This document shows positions 17,411 through 53,539 of a stretch of DNA of 64,000 nucleotides, piece by piece; within the stretch, counting starts at the first letter, position 1, and each line of letters starts with the position of its first letter. Position numbers and translations under genes: made by a program. Source of the stretch: Vicugna vicugna (lineage: Eukaryota); assembly GCA_013265495.1 (NCBI GenBank), contig MU058045.1, positions 841,986-905,985 of the forward strand, in the 5' to 3' direction. Below the pieces are notes generated by a model. It worked only from the letters and a program-made list of their open reading frames with translations, was not told the DNA's origin and ran no database searches.

Positions 17411-17528
17411 GATAATGAGTCATCATTAAGAGAAAAGAGTGTAACGTAGATATTTTTCACTCATAATTCATGTCTGTATTAGGTGAATCAGCATCAGGAC
17501 TTGAATGATTTTTTTTTCCTAGTTTAAA
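17411..17528 (+). repeat. Copy A of a 117/118-bp dispersed direct duplication
   Basis: Identical to 19450-19566 except a T9 versus T8 run. Confidence 0.95.
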
Positions 17529-19449: not shown

Positions 19450-19566
19450 GATAATGAGTCATCATTAAGAGAAAAGAGTGTAACGTAGATATTTTTCACT
19501 CATAATTCATGTCTGTATTAGGTGAATCAGCATCAGGACTTGAATGATTTTTTTTCCTAGTTTAAA
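19450..19566 (+). repeat. Copy B of a 117/118-bp dispersed direct duplication
   Basis: Identical to 17411-17528 except one T. Confidence 0.95.
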
Positions 19567-23929: not shown

Positions 23930-24436
23930 GCCTGAGCTGGTTTTCTGTTGTCGGCTGTAACAAACTGCCACAGCCCCAGCGGCTACAAACAACGCGAACT
24001 CCTTATCTTACAGCTCTGGAGGTCAGAAGTCTGACGTGGGCATCCCTGGGCTAAAACCGGGTGTCGGCAGGGCTGTGTTCCTTCCTGGAGGTTCTGGGGG
24101 AGGATGACTTCCCTTGCCTTTTCCGGCTTCTGTGGGCCGCCTGCATCCCTTGGCTTGCGGCCCCTTCTCCATTCTCAGAGCCAGCAGCAGTAGATGGAGT
24201 CCTCCTCACTGTGTCACTCTGACCTCTGACTTCTGCCTCCCACTTCCACCTTGAAGGACCTCTGGGATTACATTGGGCCCAGTGAGATAGTCCAGAGTAG
24301 TTTTCCTATTTAAGGCCAACTGATTGAGCAGGCTTACTCCGTCTGCAACCTTAAGGCCCTTTGGCCGCGAAACCTGGCATATCCTCAGGTTCCAGGATGG
24401 AGACGTCTTTGGGGGGCACTGCTCTGCCTGCCACAG
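23930..24436 (-). mobile_element. MLT1 solo LTR inserted into a MER5-like hAT element (MER5 parts ~23865-23929 and 24437-24545)
   Basis: MLT1 motifs ctggaggtcagaagtctga and cttgccttttccggcttc. Downstream ggatctctagggtgaggcccaag...tttttaaagcccccaggtgatt is MER5-like. Confidence 0.8.
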
Positions 24437-39419: not shown

Positions 39420-40330
39420 CTTGCATTGCACCAGCCGGCCGTTCCCCTTGTCAAAAGTTGGGTTGATGATGGGCAGGTGACGTGTCCCCGACAGTTAAAT
39501 GTGAAGGAGGAGCCCTTCTGGGGCCGCTGGCAGAGGCTTTCTCTCTCTTCTAAGAAAGAGACGACCCATCCTTTCCTTCTTCCGGAAGGCATGTCTGGAT
39601 GTGACACCTGAACTGCTCTAGTGACCACCCTGTGACTGTGAGAGGAACCAGCTTGAGGCCAAAGCCCTCGCTGAGGCCAGAGGAGCAGAGACTGGCAGGC
39701 CGGGTAATGGCCCCAGAGGACCACGTCCAGGTCCTGGGACCCTATGTGACATTACGCAGCAGAGGGGACTTGGAGATGTCACTAAGGTTACAGGCTTTGA
39801 GAGAAGGAGATGATTTTGGATGGTCTGGATGGGTCCAGTGTCATTACAAGTGTCCTTAAAAGTGGAAGAGGGCGACGGGAGAGCCAGTGTCAGAGTGGCA
39901 TGATGTGTAAAGGACTCGGCCAGCCATTGGTGGATTTGGAGATGGAAGGGGCCACGAGCTAGGGAGCGCAGGCAGCCCCTGAAGCTGGCAATGCAAGGAA
40001 ATGGACTCTTCCTTGGATCCTCCAGAAAGGAATGCAGCCCTGCCAACACACCGCTTTTAACCCACCAAGACCAGGTCAGACTTCTGACCCCCAGATCTAT
40101 CTGATAATAAGTTTGTGTCATTTTTAGTCACTAAGTATGTGATCATTTGTTACAGCAGAGGTAGGAAACTGATACAGAGTTGGAAGGAGCCCGGTGACTT
40201 AATGACTCTTTTGAACCTCTCATCCGCTGACCCTGGAGCTCTTCTTGAATTTCTCATCACACAAGACAAGTTGTTGAATCCAGTTTGAGTTGAATTTCTG
40301 CTGCTTACAGCCTAAGCTGTCCTAATCGAC
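39420..40330 (+). mobile_element. Older MLT1 LTR interrupted by a younger MLT1C/D-type LTR (~39695-40176)
   Basis: Inner element: aatggcccc...gtcattacaagtgtcctta...gcaaggaaatggactct...gttacagcag...aactgataca. Outer 3' part: ccagtttgagttgaatttctgctgcttacagcctaa. Confidence 0.7.
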
Positions 40331-45539: not shown

Positions 45540-46240
45540 GTGTCCTTTCAGGGGATCAGTCCTGTGAGTTTTGATACACAAGCACCGTCACAACTTGGAA
45601 CGTGCCCGTCACCCAGAACGTCTGCTTACACCCCTTTGTGACCAGCTCCTCCCTCCATCTGAGCCACTAGGCGTCACTGACATGTTTTCTGTCCTTACAG
45701 TGTTGCCCTTTCCAAACTGAAACATAAATGGAGTGGTGCAGTATGTAGCTTCTATCTCTGGCTACTTTCACCGAGTATAAAGACGTTCAAGCTTCATCCA
45801 TACTGTTGCTTGTATCAGTAGTTTGACGTTCAAGCTTCATCCATACTGTTGCTTGTATCAGTAGTTTGTTCCATGGCATCCCGTCGTATGGCTGCACCAC
45901 AGTTTGTTTCTTCCTTCACCAGTTGAAAGACATTGGGTTGTTGCCAGTTTTTGGCAACTTGGAATCAAGCCGCCGAACATTTGCATTTAGGTTTTTGTGT
46001 GCATAAAATGTCTTTACTTCTCTTGGGTAAATACCTAGAAGTAAATACCTTTACTTCTCTTGCGTAGGATTTCGGGTTTATATGGTCAGCATCTGTTTAA
46101 GTTTTCAAAGAAACTGACCAACTGTTTTCCAAAGTTGTGGGGGCGCCGCATGTAACACGTGCATTCCTGTCCTCAGTGTATGAGAATTTCAGTTGCACGT
46201 CATTCTTGCCAGCACTTGGTATTAAATTTTAGCCATTTTT
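45540..46240 (-). mobile_element. L1MB/MC-like 3' fragment
   Basis: ttcatccatactgttgcttgtatcagtagtttg, cttgggtaaatacctagaagt, cattcttgccagcacttggt. Confidence 0.75.
45782..45867 (+). repeat. Perfect 43-bp tandem duplication
   Basis: gacgttcaagcttcatccatactgttgcttgtatcagtagttt occurs twice (45782-45824, 45825-45867). Confidence 0.95.
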
Positions 46241-46598: not shown

Positions 46599-47320
46599 TA
46601 GAAAGTACTTAAATTTAGTTCAGTTTAAATAATAATTTGTAGTAATTTGATTCAGTCCCAAACATAATTAAATCTTAATTGAATAATTTAATAAATTGAT
46701 GAGAAAATTGATTTGCCAGACCAGGACCATTCCGCATGAAGGTTGCTTTGAAAACACCTCAAGACCATCCTAGGATTTGACCTGCAGCACGAAGACATAC
46801 TCTTGACTTAGGCAAGAAGATTTTGTGCCCCATTCAAACATACTGAGCACACACCTCATTCCTAAAAAGGAATGTAAAATGTTCAACTCTGAATTTGATC
46901 ATAGTAACGGCTACAGGGTATGTGTTTAAATTCACAGAGACAGATTAATGCACTTACCAAAACCCCCATTGCCTAAAAGCAATTATAAGTTTTCTAGATT
47001 GACTGCCAATATGATATAGGCCCCAAAGAAACCACCCCTCTTTACTGAGACAGAACAATAAATTGGTTTTCCTGAATACAGTGGGTAAAGAATCCAAGTT
47101 CCTGACCTCGAATATTTCACTGGTAGTGTTCTGTGCAGTAGGGAACAGTCAGGGTGACATTTGCTGAAATGTTGGAGATTTATAACATAATAGCTTGAGC
47201 ATATGTGCCAGAAAATAAAAATCTTAAATCCTATCAAATCAAGATTAATCACCTATTAAAATGCTAACAAATAGTTTAGTACAGGTGGTGTAATAGGCTG
47301 TCTCTCTTCATATATTGTTA

Positions 47321-47495
47321 CAAAACAAACTATTTGGCGGTGACATGAAACATCATGTATCTTCTCTCTCACTCTCAGTGGGAAAACGGAAAAAAACTGC
47401 TAGTCGGTCATTCTCGGTGTGGATTTTGGCATTTCATTAGGAAGTGCTATCACAAACCTTTTCACCGAAAAGCATATGCACCTCTCTGGAAACTG
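47321..47495 (+). repeat. Copy A of an old diverged ~170-bp duplication
   Basis: Collinear with 48380-48546; shared blocks caaaacaaact, gtgacatgaaa, cagtgggaaaa, tgtggattttggcatttc, ctctggaaa. Confidence 0.85.
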
Positions 47496-48379
47496 CTCAA
47501 TTTCCTGACTTTGTACTGCTGCCAAAACGCTGTTGTTTCTCCCCATCATTAACTACTACATATTTATTCCTTTCTATCTTTGTGGAGAGTAAACCTGGAC
47601 AGCACTCCCAGGAAAAGGAAAACAGTAGTTGCTTCCTCCCTCTCACTGGCTTTGCAGAAATTAATCCCGTGGGCGAAATGTCTTCTTCATGTTCAGCTTT
47701 AGTTTAATGGCTTGAGCTGTGGACCAAGGCGTAGTAGCAGAAATGATACACTCATGTGATGGGGTTTGTTCATTGAGATGCTTTTTGAAATTTGCATGAA
47801 AATGGCTCGTGAAATTTTGTCAGTGAACCTTCTATTAGTAAGTAACGGCGTTGCTAGGCCGGCTCCCGATGAATAGTCAGCAAATGTTTACTGAGGACAT
47901 GCTGCATGCCAGGCATTCCCTGCGCTTCAGTGATGCTGTGGTGAGCAACCTAGACCCGACCCCCTTGTGCCAGTTGTCTCCGGTGAAAATGTCTTGTTAT
48001 TGGAAGACGATGGAACACAAGTGCAAGCAACAGCTATGGAAATAGTACCCAAAACATCATCGTGGCTAAAAAGCAGTAGGTGGGAAGCACATTACAGGTT
48101 TGAAAAGGTGCAAACTATTGGAAACCACAGTAATTGAGACTTAAATAAAACCCATCAGCAGGCCTATCTATTTTTCCAATTTGTCACCTAGGTGCCAGTT
48201 CCCTTAAACAAGTAAATATGCCCTGTCTGCTCGCATGGGTCGTAAAGCCCTTCCTGTGGGAGTTTCACTCCCCTCCTCATCCCGAAAGAATGCCAGCAAC
48301 GTGCAGTGCTGTTCTGTTTCCGAGACCCTGGACTGTCTCCCTCCGAAGGGTGTGACGAGCTGTACTTCATTTGTTTTTG

Positions 48380-48546
48380 CAAAACAAACTCTTCAGCAGT
48401 GACATGAAATATCATGTCTCTTCTTTCTCACTCACAGTGGGAAAAGGGAAGAAAAAGCACCCCTTGGTCATTTCTCTTTGTGGATTTTGGCATTTCGTTG
48501 GAAAGTGCCAATAGGTAGTCATTTTTTATGCTGCTCTGGAAAGCTG
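48380..48546 (+). repeat. Copy B of an old diverged ~170-bp duplication
   Basis: Collinear with 47321-47495 at an offset of ~1059 bp. Confidence 0.85.
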
Positions 48547-50779
48547 TAAGCAGCCTTCCAAGTCACAAAGCAAACTCAGTCCCTAATGGTTCTCGAAACC
48601 CAGGTCAGAAAGGTGGGAAACTTGTATTTTTCCAGGCAGGGAGTGCATGAAAAATACACCTGCAACCTGCTCAGCTGCCCCAAGTTCTCCTCTGTAGCCA
48701 GCTTCTCTGCTCAGAGGACTGCACATCAATCTGTCGCTGATGGTCAGCAGAGCAGCAAAGAGCCAATGTTTTTGTGAACCTACAGCAGAATGACTTGCTT
48801 CCCAGCTGGTGATCAATCTGTGTTGGACGGCAGCGTGTTTGCCTCTACAAATGAGCTGGACCCCTCTGCCACGTATCTCTGCCAACTTTTGAAAGAAAGA
48901 GTCTGTTGCAGTTCTTTTCGGGGGTAAAGACAAAAAGTCTGTCTCCCTTTACACAACCAGCTATTGAAAAAAATCCATGCAAATATCCGCAGCCGGTATC
49001 CCAAGGAAATCGTTTTGAGAGGTCAGGAAGTTGTCCTAAAAGAGAAAGAATCCATGTATGGCTTTAAACACATACACACACATACACACACCACACACTA
49101 AATATCTTTGTTTCTCTTTTGTAAAGATGAGGTGCCCGTGGTAATTGTAGCATCTCTGGACACTTCTCACTTCAATCTAGAAAGATCCTGGGCTTTAGGA
49201 TATCGATTGACTTCTCCAAGCTCCGCGTGAAGCCAACATTGAGATAATGCTGTGAAAATTGCTGCAGAACTTTTAATTGATTTTGATTATTATTGGTGAA
49301 AGTGGACTGACCAGGTTTAGCCTGGAAGTAATGCCACTGAATCAGTGCTAATGGAAACGCACAGTGTGTTTTGGCAGTTGTGAACTTTTAAGAGACCTTT
49401 CTTAAAGTTCACCAGGGCAGAGAGGTGCCACTGTAGCCCAGAAACCCACGGCACGGCAGAAGGACTTTGAGTTGGCAGAGGTGAAGAAGTAACTAAGTGT
49501 GTGTGAAAATTTACGTGAATGCGGACGAGAGCAAGGAGCCATGATGGGGAGCAGAAGGGTAAGGAAGACTTCTGGGGTTGAGCTCGCTATGATGCAGCGC
49601 TCTGGTGGATTTGGGGTAGGTGTGAGTGAATGAACGAGAATGGGGATGAGGAGTTATTTGTGGATGGGGACAGTGAAGTGGAAAACTTTGAAGAAAGCTG
49701 TATACCATTGCGGGGGCATTTAGTAACACAAATTACTGTTCTTTGTTGTCTGTGATCATGTTAGTCCCCTGGATAAACAGATTCTGTTGACGTTTAGGAC
49801 ACAAGTGTAAAGGGGCAATGGGATTTTTTGCATCTTGGTCAGGATAGGTGGGGTACCTCATTTCTCCATAGAGCGTAGGGGTCTCCAGACCCATGGAAGA
49901 GCTAGTAGAAATAAAGTAGATGAGTTAGAAAGAAGGGAACTCTGGAAAGAGAGAGTGGAGATCACTTTGGCCTCAAATTGTGGCTCAGCTGGGCCATTCT
50001 TGAGCCGTGGAAAGGCTTTCTGGTTTAGTAAGCCATTATATTAGATGCACTTCATGGTAGCTTCCAGCATCATACTCAACATGAAACCGAAGCAGACTGC
50101 ACAACTCTGCTAGAGTTCCGGTTCCTTTAGGGTAAAGACTGTGTGTGATCCATCTTTGTGCTCTCACGTACACATAGTTGGTACCCAGACCAGACAGCTG
50201 CTTTCAGTGGTTGATTTCACTGTTCATCCCAAACACGAATATTCCCCACTCATAAGAATAGTGGTGTTGCCCTCTTGGGTTGGATATATGACCCTCCAGC
50301 CCCCAAGCCTGCCTGAGAAGGTGATGTGCACAGAGGACGTATTACAGCAGGGCATGGTTATCTCCTTCAGGATTAACCGCTATGATTATTAGTATCTTCC
50401 CGAACATCTTAGCAACTCTCTGTAGCCCCCTTGGCCTTTTCATTAGTGGAATTATCTAACTAGTTACCAGTTTATAGCCAGAACATCTCCCAGTTTCACC
50501 AGCTTTTGAGTATAAATGAATTTACATTAACATGAATGCCCACTGAGGCCATATTAACATTAATGTCGAAATCTCACTGACTCCCCTCTTTAAATATCTC
50601 GGTGAGTCCCAAGGGAGTGTCTCATACGTCCTCGGGAATCTGAGCTGCTAATATGCCACCGCTGCTGGTTGCCACTACCGCTTGGAGACAACGCCTCCCT
50701 CCCACCACCATGACCTCCTGTCCCCTCTGTTGCTCCAAGATGACCAGTTAAATTTGCATACAGGAAGGATGCCTTTGGG

Positions 50780-51310
50780 GTAGCCTGGATGATGGGCAGC
50801 AGGGGGGTCAGGATCCAATGAAGGGAAACCTGTTAGGAGATGGCTTGATACAGTTTAATCATGAGATGATGTTGGGCTAGCCTGGAATGACCAGGGTGGG
50901 GAGAAGATACCAAGAGAAGCGGACGGATTTGAAAGGAGATAAAATCAGGAAGATTTCGTGATGAAGTGGCTTCTGGCTTGTGCAGCTGCATAGAAGCCAG
51001 TAGCACTCACTCTGGGCCAGGGCACACAGGGAGAGGGAGTTCCGCTGCAGCAGAATACGGAGACCTTGAGTTCCTTGAGTTATTCTCAAGTTAGGTTATG
51101 TTGGGAAGAGTTGGCTTCTTTTGAGTTTGGAGCTCAGGGGAGAACTCTGAACTTGAAATTTACATCTGGGGGTCACTGTACTCACTGTGATCGAAGTCAT
51201 GGTCCTGAACATAGAGGGGAGCTGAGGGCCTAGAGCAGGGCTCCCTGCTCCCTCCTGGAAGAGGAGGGTGCGGAACAGCAGCCAGAGAGGTTTCAGGAAA
51301 AGCATGAGAA
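50780..51310 (-). mobile_element. L2 fragment
   Basis: Purine-rich L2 antisense pattern (ggagctcaggggagaactctgaacttgaaatttacatctgggggtca). Confidence 0.6.
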
Positions 51311-51445
51311 CAAGGTCAAATGATGGTTTAATTAAATTTCTCACTTCTTTTCTCATTTTAATCTATTCTGTTGTACCCTTCGTAGCATTTGCCTTCCGTA
51401 GTCAGGGTTGTTAATTATTAGAATGTATCTTTTTGCCTCCTGTTT

Positions 51446-52648
51446 GGCCTGAGGTGGAAATACTGAGCCCAGCTTGGGGGTGAGGGAAGCAAGTGGGAAG
51501 GGTGGAAGCACAGGAGTGGAATCCACCCCTGGGTGCTGGGACCGAGAGATGGCCAGTCACAGTGACGCAGAAGAGGAGGGCAATGGCCTTGGGAGACTAG
51601 ACAGCACCTAGGATGTGGGACTCGTGGTTTTTGTTATTGTTTTGTTTTGTTTTTTTCATTTTTCAGTTTTATTAGGGGACTCATGTTTTAAGTATTGGGA
51701 AACTCCTGAAGATTTTTTAGAATGACAGTGACAGTGGGGGAAAAAGAGGGGGTTAGGGTGAAGGTTATTGTGGATTTAATTGGGCAGTGATATGAAAACA
51801 CTGCAGACGCCAGTGTTCAGTTGGGGTGAATCATTGACCAGGTTGGTGACGGTAAGAATGGAAAGAAGAGTATGTTTGAGAGAGAAAAAAGGCTTCGCAA
51901 GCTCTGATGATGGGTCCAAAGGGAAGTCTAAGGGCAGCAGATGAATAAGAAATGACTCCCAGCCTCTGAGCCTGGTACAGATTTCCACATTTCAGAGCTA
52001 GAAAATAGCTTTAAAGCCATCTAATTCGGGGGGAGGGTATAGCTCAGTGGAGGCCTGAGGTGGGAATACTGAGCCCAGCTGGGGGGTGAGGGAAGCAAGT
52101 GGGAAGGGTGGAAGCACAGGAGTGGAATCCACCCCTGGTGCTGGGACCGAGAGACGGCCAGTCGCAGTGACGCAGAAGAGGAGGGCAATGGCCCTGGGAG
52201 GCTGGACAGCACCGAGGGTGTGGGACGCGTGGCTTTTGCTTTGCTTTGTTTTGTTCATTTTTCAGTTTTATTAGGGGACTCATGTTTTAAGTATTGGGAA
52301 ACTCCTGAAGACTTTTTAGAATGACAGTGACAGTGGGGGAAAAAGAGGGGTTAGGGTGGAGGTTATTGTGGATTTAATTGGGCAGTGATATGGAAACACT
52401 GCAGACGCCAGTGTTCAGTTGGGGTGAATCATTGACCAGGTTGGTGACGGTAAGAATGGAAAGAAGAGTATGTTTGAGAGAGAAAAAAGGCTTCGCAAGC
52501 TCTGATGATGGGTCCAAAGGGAAGTCTAAGGGCAGCAGATGAATAAGAAATGACTCCCAGCCTCTGAGCCTGGTACAGATTTCCACATTTCAGAGCTAGA
52601 AAATAGCTTTAAAGCCATCTAATTCGGGGGGAGGGTATAGCTCAGTGG
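51446..52648 (+). repeat. ~600-bp head-to-tail tandem duplication (copy 1 51446-52050, copy 2 52052-52648)
   Basis: Direct alignment; the duplicated ORF-track entries 51776..51988 and 52374..52586 agree. The last 255 bp are identical. Confidence 0.97.
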
Positions 52649-52718
52649 TAGAGGCGTGTGCTTAGCATGCACAAGGTCCTGGGTTCAATCCCCAGTACCT
52701 CCGTTTAAAAAATTTTTG
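52626..52718 (+). mobile_element. tRNA-Ala-derived SINE (Vic-1-like), with a 23-bp duplicated head fragment at 52028-52050
   Basis: ggggggagggtatagctcagtggtagaggcgtgtgcttagcatgcacaaggtcctgggttcaatccccagtacctcc; diverged TSD aagccatctaattc / aagttatcttattc. Confidence 0.9.
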
Positions 52719-53539
52719 AAGTTATCTTATTCAGTGTTTCCACATGCAGAATCTAATGGAGAAACTCAGGTTGGAAGCCATTAGATTGTGAAAGTAATTC
52801 TCAAGTCTCTTTCTGAGGTCCTTTCTTTCCTTTCCTAGTGAGATTTTCCAGAAATGGGCTAGTTTATGTCACTACCATACTCAGCCTCCAGATTTCCCTT
52901 ATCCACCCTGACCAAGGTTCAGGAAAATCCCAGGTGCAGTGGATCTTAGTAATAGGATACCCTTTGCCATGTGTCTTTTATATTTCATGGACACTTGGGG
53001 ACATTTTGGTGAGAATTTTTAAAATGAGACTGTATGGCATGACGTTCCAGCTCCACACCTACCTCTCACCCCAGCAGGAAGGAATATCAGCAGTGCTTTC
53101 CTGATAAAAACTACAGAATTTACATGGAAGACAGTATAGTAGTGGTAGGAACCATCAATTATTGTATTATGGCTGTTGAAGATAAAGTTCAGTTTTGCAA
53201 AATGATGAAAACATTTATCATCCATCCAGCTGTGTTGTACACTGCTATGTTAAAATATTGGGTTAAGCATTGGTCTGCATTAAAAGAAATACTGTGTTAG
53301 AATCAAAAGAAATAACGTTCTTGATCTACTCTATTGTTGAAAAGTCATTCGTTGTATTTGATTCAGTTACACATGCCATAGGAACGGAAATGTATTACCT
53401 AGAGTTGGGGACCAATCCCCAGTAGAACTGGCGAATCATGTCACGTGAAGCATCAGGCTACAAAGGAGGACTCAGCAAACCAGGGCCCGGGGCCTGTTTT
53501 CATACAACACACAAGCTAAGAATGTAGGTTTTAATATTT

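Follow-up and report, generated by a model that had tools for sequence, protein, structure and literature searches.

At 16 sites, two adjacent tandem copies of a unit of about 600 bp in the analysed window (the whole stretch of 64,000 nucleotides) differ from each other, and at every one of these sites the first copy carries A or T and the second G or C. A real, young tandem duplication combined with allelic GC-biased gene conversion (gBGC) at a narrow hotspot on the lineage of copy 2 is the explanation we consider best, with a probability of roughly 0.55. This figure, like the weight given in words to each of the other explanations, is a judgement and not a computed posterior. The copies and the parts of them that enter the alignment are as follows.

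51446..52050, + strand: copy 1 (605 bp), with A/T at 16/16 differing sites, probably near-ancestral to judge from the substitution spectrum
52052..52648, + strand: copy 2 (597 bp, 8 nt shorter), with G/C at 16/16 differing sites
51796..52050, + strand: identical stretch of 255 bp, equal to 52394-52648
51625..51656, + strand: T-rich degenerate microsatellite (counterpart about 52230-52255; alignment ambiguous)

The two copies are 95.87% identical by blastn. Each of the optimal global alignments (45/45) has 16 substitutions, and every one of them sets an A or T of copy 1 against a G or C of copy 2; the same alignments contained 0 differences of the opposite polarity, 0 of the A/T-A/T type and 0 of the G/C-G/C type. 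They also contained 8 gap columns, all making copy 2 shorter, and two of the indels between the copies are single-base length differences in G runs. MAFFT placed the T-rich tract otherwise and returned 17 substitutions and 3 indels, with the polarity unchanged. By class, the substitutions are A/G (7), T/C (6) and T/G (3; at 51475, 51609 and 51622). The first is located at unit position 13 and the last at 51795; 13/16 lie within the first 195 bp, and 11/16 are packed into 91 bp (51550-51640). In the T-rich tract, three T/C differences occupy a short unit present three times and may represent one mutation copied by slippage; because of this possible single event, we also counted 14 independent sites. 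The polarised pattern between the tandem copies was confirmed as an observation. An earlier note on this DNA had given the coordinates and lengths exactly (605 bp and 597 bp), and the complete A/T-versus-G/C polarity that it described, three T/G transversions included, was reproduced, as were the 5' clustering and the 255-bp identity.

Based on a two-sided binomial test, the polarity has P = 3e-5 for 16 sites and P = 1.2e-4 for 14 sites. With both copies evolving neutrally at published rates, P = 2-3e-6 (16 sites) and 1-2e-5 (14 sites); these are rates of the human lineage, taken from Table 3 of Duret and Arndt (PMC2346554), and the host is a camelid. Placing substitutions at random on A/T sites, we obtained P = 1.5e-4 for 11 substitutions within 91 bp (200,000 placements) and, with uniform placement, P = 1.3e-3 for a difference-free run of at least 255 bp. 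Both the polarity and the clustering statistics were picked post hoc, with the pattern already in view. In a scan of many windows, the polarity by itself could originate by chance; polarity combined with clustering is an unlikely product of chance. An older local pair (47306-47447 and 48365-48508; ~144 bp, 81% identical, 1.06 kb apart) shows balanced weak/strong differences, 10 vs 10.

The substitution spectrum bears on the direction of change. CpG transitions account for 2/16 substitutions, as against 46% expected if copy 2 were ancestral (P = 0.005), and an ancestral copy 2 would also require the loss of two further CpG sites through transversion. With 2/16 CpG transitions and three transversions, CpG decay was rejected as the cause. 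In simulated fits, the four-class spectrum agreed with a copy 2 that had moved from A/T to G/C (P = 0.28), and poorly with a copy 1 that had moved from G/C to A/T (P = 0.0008). At the human rates of the table cited above, the likelihood ratio is 306 for copy 1 as the ancestral state, or 156 with the T-tract collapsed, and it shrinks to 1.5-7 if CpG sites are merely 1-3 times hypermutable. Judged from the spectrum, A/T-to-G/C change in copy 2 would be favoured by about 150-300 to 1. The 64-kb window contains no third copy of the unit that might serve as an internal outgroup to polarise the sites. A pattern scan of metagenome contigs for host DNA gave one exact match of 21 bases, attributable to chance; the matching contig (L001) aligns to the window across these 21 bases only and appears bacterial. 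The same kind of scan of prokaryote genome contigs gave 0 matches. Positions 1-700 of L001 consist of an array of ~120-bp diverged repeats adjoining a gene with internal repeats, unrelated to the duplication.

The distribution of the changes in copy 2 is described by two intervals.

52064..52393, + strand: stretch of copy 2 over which the 16 polarised substitutions are spread (median 52216, -152 to +177 bp)
52155..52244, + strand: dense core with 11/16 substitutions (counterpart 51550-51640, with 43 A/T sites)

The first interval, which would be the footprint of the hotspot, is roughly symmetric, 330 bp long and centred near 52216. No difference belongs to the unpolarised classes, on which gBGC in copy 2 would have no effect, and the pair should therefore be young. 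The corresponding upper bound (95%) on neutral divergence is 0.58-0.81% per branch, and the age of the pair would be less than 4-6 My at 7e-9 per 5-year generation, the rate assumed in PMC7331169. Under the same bound, at most 2-3 of the 16 differences are expected from ordinary decay of copy 1. Relative to neutral, A/T-to-G/C change in copy 2 would have been accelerated at least 15-25 times across 350 bp, and in the core the factor would be no less than 43-74. Since the rate multiplier approximates B under gBGC, the core implies a sustained B of >40. This value is beyond human estimates, in which hotspot-averaged B reaches ~15-18 (PMC4510005), and it poses the greatest numerical difficulty for the gBGC model.

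Mirroring the right tail of the footprint leftwards, we predicted 0.35 differences at the end of copy 1 (P0 = 0.71). The identity gradient can thus be read as a local peak of divergence in an otherwise young pair, and the 255-bp identical run, unusual if differences were uniform, is expected for a young pair with a focal burst. The earlier note had suggested gBGC at a recombination hotspot, possibly with recent conversion of the 3' part. The hotspot part of this interpretation is best supported, by the polarity, the roughly symmetric 330-bp footprint and the spectrum; the recent 3' conversion is not needed. According to a mouse study (10.1101/428987), non-crossovers have tracts of 30-41 bp that lie symmetrically at short distances from PRDM9 motifs, and a GC bias of 68% is seen in single-marker tracts only. 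These properties fit a narrow symmetric footprint accumulated mutation by mutation and argue against bias from conversion between already divergent copies.

We propose that ~600 bp of non-coding DNA may have been duplicated in tandem at a recent time. A/T-to-G/C mutations would have arisen within ~170 bp of a hotspot centre near 52216, GC-favouring repair of heteroduplex mismatches would have fixed the new G/C alleles singly, and copy 1 would have changed little from the ancestral sequence. Identity across the 3' 255 bp would follow from the youth of the pair and from the position of this portion beyond the footprint. One-sided polarity, clustering in less than 1 kb and non-CpG changes with transversions among them are the marks of gBGC substitution hotspots, and the pair shows all three. 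Biased substitution clusters occur at <1-kb hotspots (PMC2631073). Two histories may be distinguished within this explanation. Tentatively, the duplication came first and copy 2 alone was hot; this history is strained, because a single hot copy among identical neighbours needs explaining, and so does the failure of copy 1 to serve as repair template for breaks in copy 2. More doubtful is a history in which inter-homolog end joining set an unconverted haplotype beside one that was already GC-converted. Inter-homolog joins have been seen in mouse among deletions, and SPO11 double cuts yield tandem duplications of ~1.3 kb, mainly in ATM-null mice (10.1101/2020.06.23.168138). By analogy, one hotspot could be behind both the duplication and the GC burst. 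A sustained strong hotspot is strained by the persistence of human hotspots, which is <0.7-1.3 My, and gBGC is incomplete as an explanation, since the indels, all of which shorten copy 2, are outside its reach. Symmetric ectopic gBGC was rejected, because it would wipe out the differences. Likewise rejected was a hotspot with its centre at the junction, because the 3' end of copy 1 should then differ, yet it does not.

The junction and the right breakpoint involve three further features.

52051..52051, + strand: junction base, readable as a single untemplated nucleotide or as belonging to a 3-bp microhomology join accompanied by a 3-nt deletion of the SINE head
52028..52050, + strand: SINE head (first 23 bp of the SINE), cut off at the duplication junction
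52626..52715, + strand: tRNA-derived SINE whose head carries the right breakpoint (Rfam tRNA RF00005 at 52631-52703, 49 bits)

The right breakpoint lies 23 bp into the SINE at 52626-52715, a feature that had been missed in the earlier note; a breakpoint would fall in a SINE by chance in 2% of cases. This SINE has five related copies elsewhere in the window and presumably resembles the camelid Vic-1 family. Because the right breakpoint is inside it, the duplication should be younger than the SINE insertion. SINE divergence amounts to 6 differences in 84 columns, 3/6 of them A-to-G in the SINE after copy 2; these A-to-G differences were left out of the analysis, because two may be retained ancestral CpG sites. 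Target-site duplication by the SINE was rejected, as both copies are 5' of the full element. The microhomology reading of the junction uses a base private to this SINE copy among the six in the window. Simulated junctions allowed such a reading in about 2% of cases, a rarity that tips the balance somewhat towards a real event, with the junction presumably present in the animal. Homology of 0-3 bp at the junction fits end joining and is unspecific to the SPO11 double-cut mechanism. Neither the junction between the copies nor any other part of the 64-kb window contains a gap or an N.

Among the alternatives, a heterotype false duplication, rightly named in the earlier note, is unlikely but carries real weight. 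Each chromosome would then have one copy, and two haplotypes different at 16 sites, one of them with a gBGC burst in its past, would have been left unmerged and assembled in tandem. According to PMC9516828, false duplications concentrate at locally high heterozygosity and at homozygous/heterozygous boundaries. In the present case divergence is high from the boundary on (13 substitutions in 195 bp), and the unit starts 12 bp ahead of the first difference and ends within a repeat. A breakpoint in the SINE and an early first difference are also expected of a haplotype bubble, which weakens the reading as a real duplication; the puzzle of a single hot copy disappears, and the two single-base indels in G runs are as expected of sequencing error. 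South American camelids often carry diverged haplotypes, with 36% introgression in alpaca (PMC7331169). Against a false duplication stands the lack of any N between the copies, such errors being mostly gap-separated and in some cases joined through wrong gap filling (PMC9516828). In addition, the junction is readable as microhomology-mediated (~2% chance), which would be unexpected from concatenation of contigs. An assembly error would be no competitor to gBGC itself, because haplotypes with 16 polarised sites would still require it. A mutational cause without gBGC is less probable again: an error shower in copy 2 during duplication synthesis, a cluster of lesions in copy 1, or consensus errors with a bias in one of the copies. 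Such a single event would give the asymmetry without a long-lived, very strong hotspot; it would also explain differences that begin just past the junction and thin out with distance, and homopolymer-length changes that all shorten copy 2. The signatures of known processes point the other way. The APOBEC context is TpC and the polymerase-eta context is WA/TW; APOBEC-type context was found at 3/13 sites vs 22% and polymerase-eta-type context at 7/16 vs a 49% background, and the strands are interleaved. Without context enrichment or strand coordination, APOBEC and polymerase-eta mutation clusters were rejected. To our knowledge, no error process gives only A/T-to-G/C changes on both strands, transversions included. 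Decay of copy 1 alone gave a polarity P = 5e-5 to 3e-4 and a poor spectrum.

One-way ectopic conversion acting as a filter on an old pair is improbable. Breaks in copy 2 would have been repaired from copy 1, and only mismatches with G/C on the recipient would have survived. Polarity would then arise without rate acceleration, the asymmetry and the gradient would be accounted for together, and the 3' part would be homogenised sequence, which is nearest to the 3' conversion that the earlier note had in mind. The age needed, ~5-6% per branch, is not above the SINE divergence (6/84 columns). According to Li et al. (10.1101/428987), a G/C recipient strand blocks conversion 53% of the time, the bias is near 100% in complex events, and dense markers show no GC bias. 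The last of these speaks against a filter, and a 53% block gives P(16/16) = 4e-4; a block of at least 90% is needed (P = 0.13-0.35). Moreover, the spectrum prefers pure A/T-to-G/C change by 4-22 to 1, and the 5' part needs biased conversion while the 3' part needs unbiased complete conversion. Ordinary neutral divergence, noticed as a chance extreme, is the least credible of the alternatives and very improbable. Very many windows were scanned, 13-14 independent sites give a polarity P = 1-4e-5, and the older local pair described above is unbiased (10 vs 10), so that it is the biased pairs that get noticed. Clustering has separately a P = 1.5e-4, and a known process predicts polarity and clustering jointly.

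Allelic gBGC at a focal hotspot, the preferred explanation, may be compared with known systems. HAR1 has 18 fixed differences, all weak-to-strong (PMC2873926), and the strongest human phastBias tracts have a median length of 276 bp at B = 10 (PMC3744432). Like biased clusters, HAR1 and phastBias tracts, the changes described here occupy less than 1 kb, are of weak/strong type only, belong to one lineage and include both transitions and transversions, and their extent is that of the strongest human tracts. Unlike those cases, the comparison here is between adjacent paralogues and not orthologues, and the direction is deduced from the spectrum and not from an outgroup. Mouse Fxy in the pseudoautosomal region (PAR) has 28 replacement substitutions, all weak-to-strong (PMC2631073), and resembles the tandem pair in its full polarity and in a strongly raised rate that affects a single copy or lineage. 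The change in Fxy is coding and regional and followed a move into the PAR, whereas the pair has ~350 bp of non-coding DNA affected. The duplication resembles SPO11 double-cut duplications in its sub-kb to 1-kb scale (medians of ~1.3 kb in the latter), in breakpoints within ~500 bp of the presumed centre, and in short junction homology, reported there for inserts; the SPO11 events come mainly from ATM-null mice at hotspot pairs, and inter-homolog joining was described for deletions, not duplications (10.1101/2020.06.23.168138).

With heterotype false duplications, the pair shares adjoining near-identical copies and high divergence from the boundary; unlike the usual cases, it has no gap between the tandem copies (PMC9516828). 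The pair is also similar to interlocus gene conversion in segmental duplications, in that the paralogues are neighbours, share a long tract without differences and show a link to GC; such conversion homogenises copies and raises GC in both (PMC4467073 and PMC10172114). Interlocus conversion alone would not be expected to place all G/C states in one copy. In the literature searched, which left most subscription papers outside, we found no earlier example of tandem neighbours whose divergence is polarised at every site.

Most likely, the pattern reflects a known process, gBGC, in non-coding DNA, and the setting between adjacent tandem copies is what is unusual. If the duplication is real, pre-burst and post-burst states of one sequence are kept 600 bp apart on one chromosome. 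Together with camelid resequencing data, they could give the width and strength of a hotspot gBGC footprint in a little-studied lineage, and could show whether the hotspot also made the duplication. If the duplication is false, gBGC-diverged haplotypes would be shown to seed assembly errors. If one-way conversion filtered the differences, a GC-polarised difference between paralogues would arise without accelerated substitution, and the pair would be a natural test of gBGC acting by blocked conversion at G/C recipient sites. Biologically, the pair is probably of little consequence, as no gene or function was found to be involved: 0/376 stop-free stretches of at least 60 codons in the window match Pfam, a search that exons in shorter stretches would escape.

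The sequence setting was also characterised, including one motif within the copies.

52081..52108, + strand: G-quadruplex-like motif (counterpart in copy 1 at 51476-51502)

The window has 19 motifs of this kind, two of which are those in the copies. Rfam gave four tRNA-like matches in the window, every one SINE-derived. No obvious CpG island stands out in the window (1-64000), where 500-bp segments often have CpG observed/expected ratios of 0.3-0.6; such values are high for mammalian bulk DNA and would suit a high-recombination or subtelomeric region. The region 49001-53000 has a G-over-C skew of 0.24-0.28 on the + strand in 3/4 1-kb windows and resembles what we take to be a decayed L2 element.

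Other repeats were noted in the window. A 118-bp direct repeat in apparently unique AT-rich DNA (17411-17528 and 19450-19566, 2,039 bp apart) has copies that differ by one base, in a T run; it could be a very young templated insertion, a paired duplication or an assembly quirk. A tandem duplication of 43 bp at 45782-45867 is perfect, has no spacer and shows 1-bp microhomology. Inverted copies of an old interspersed repeat lie at 23951-24281 and 39830-40159 and are 69% identical; the copy near 24 kb is GC-richer at 43/59 weak/strong differences, and its GC excess possibly reflects an older local GC bias.
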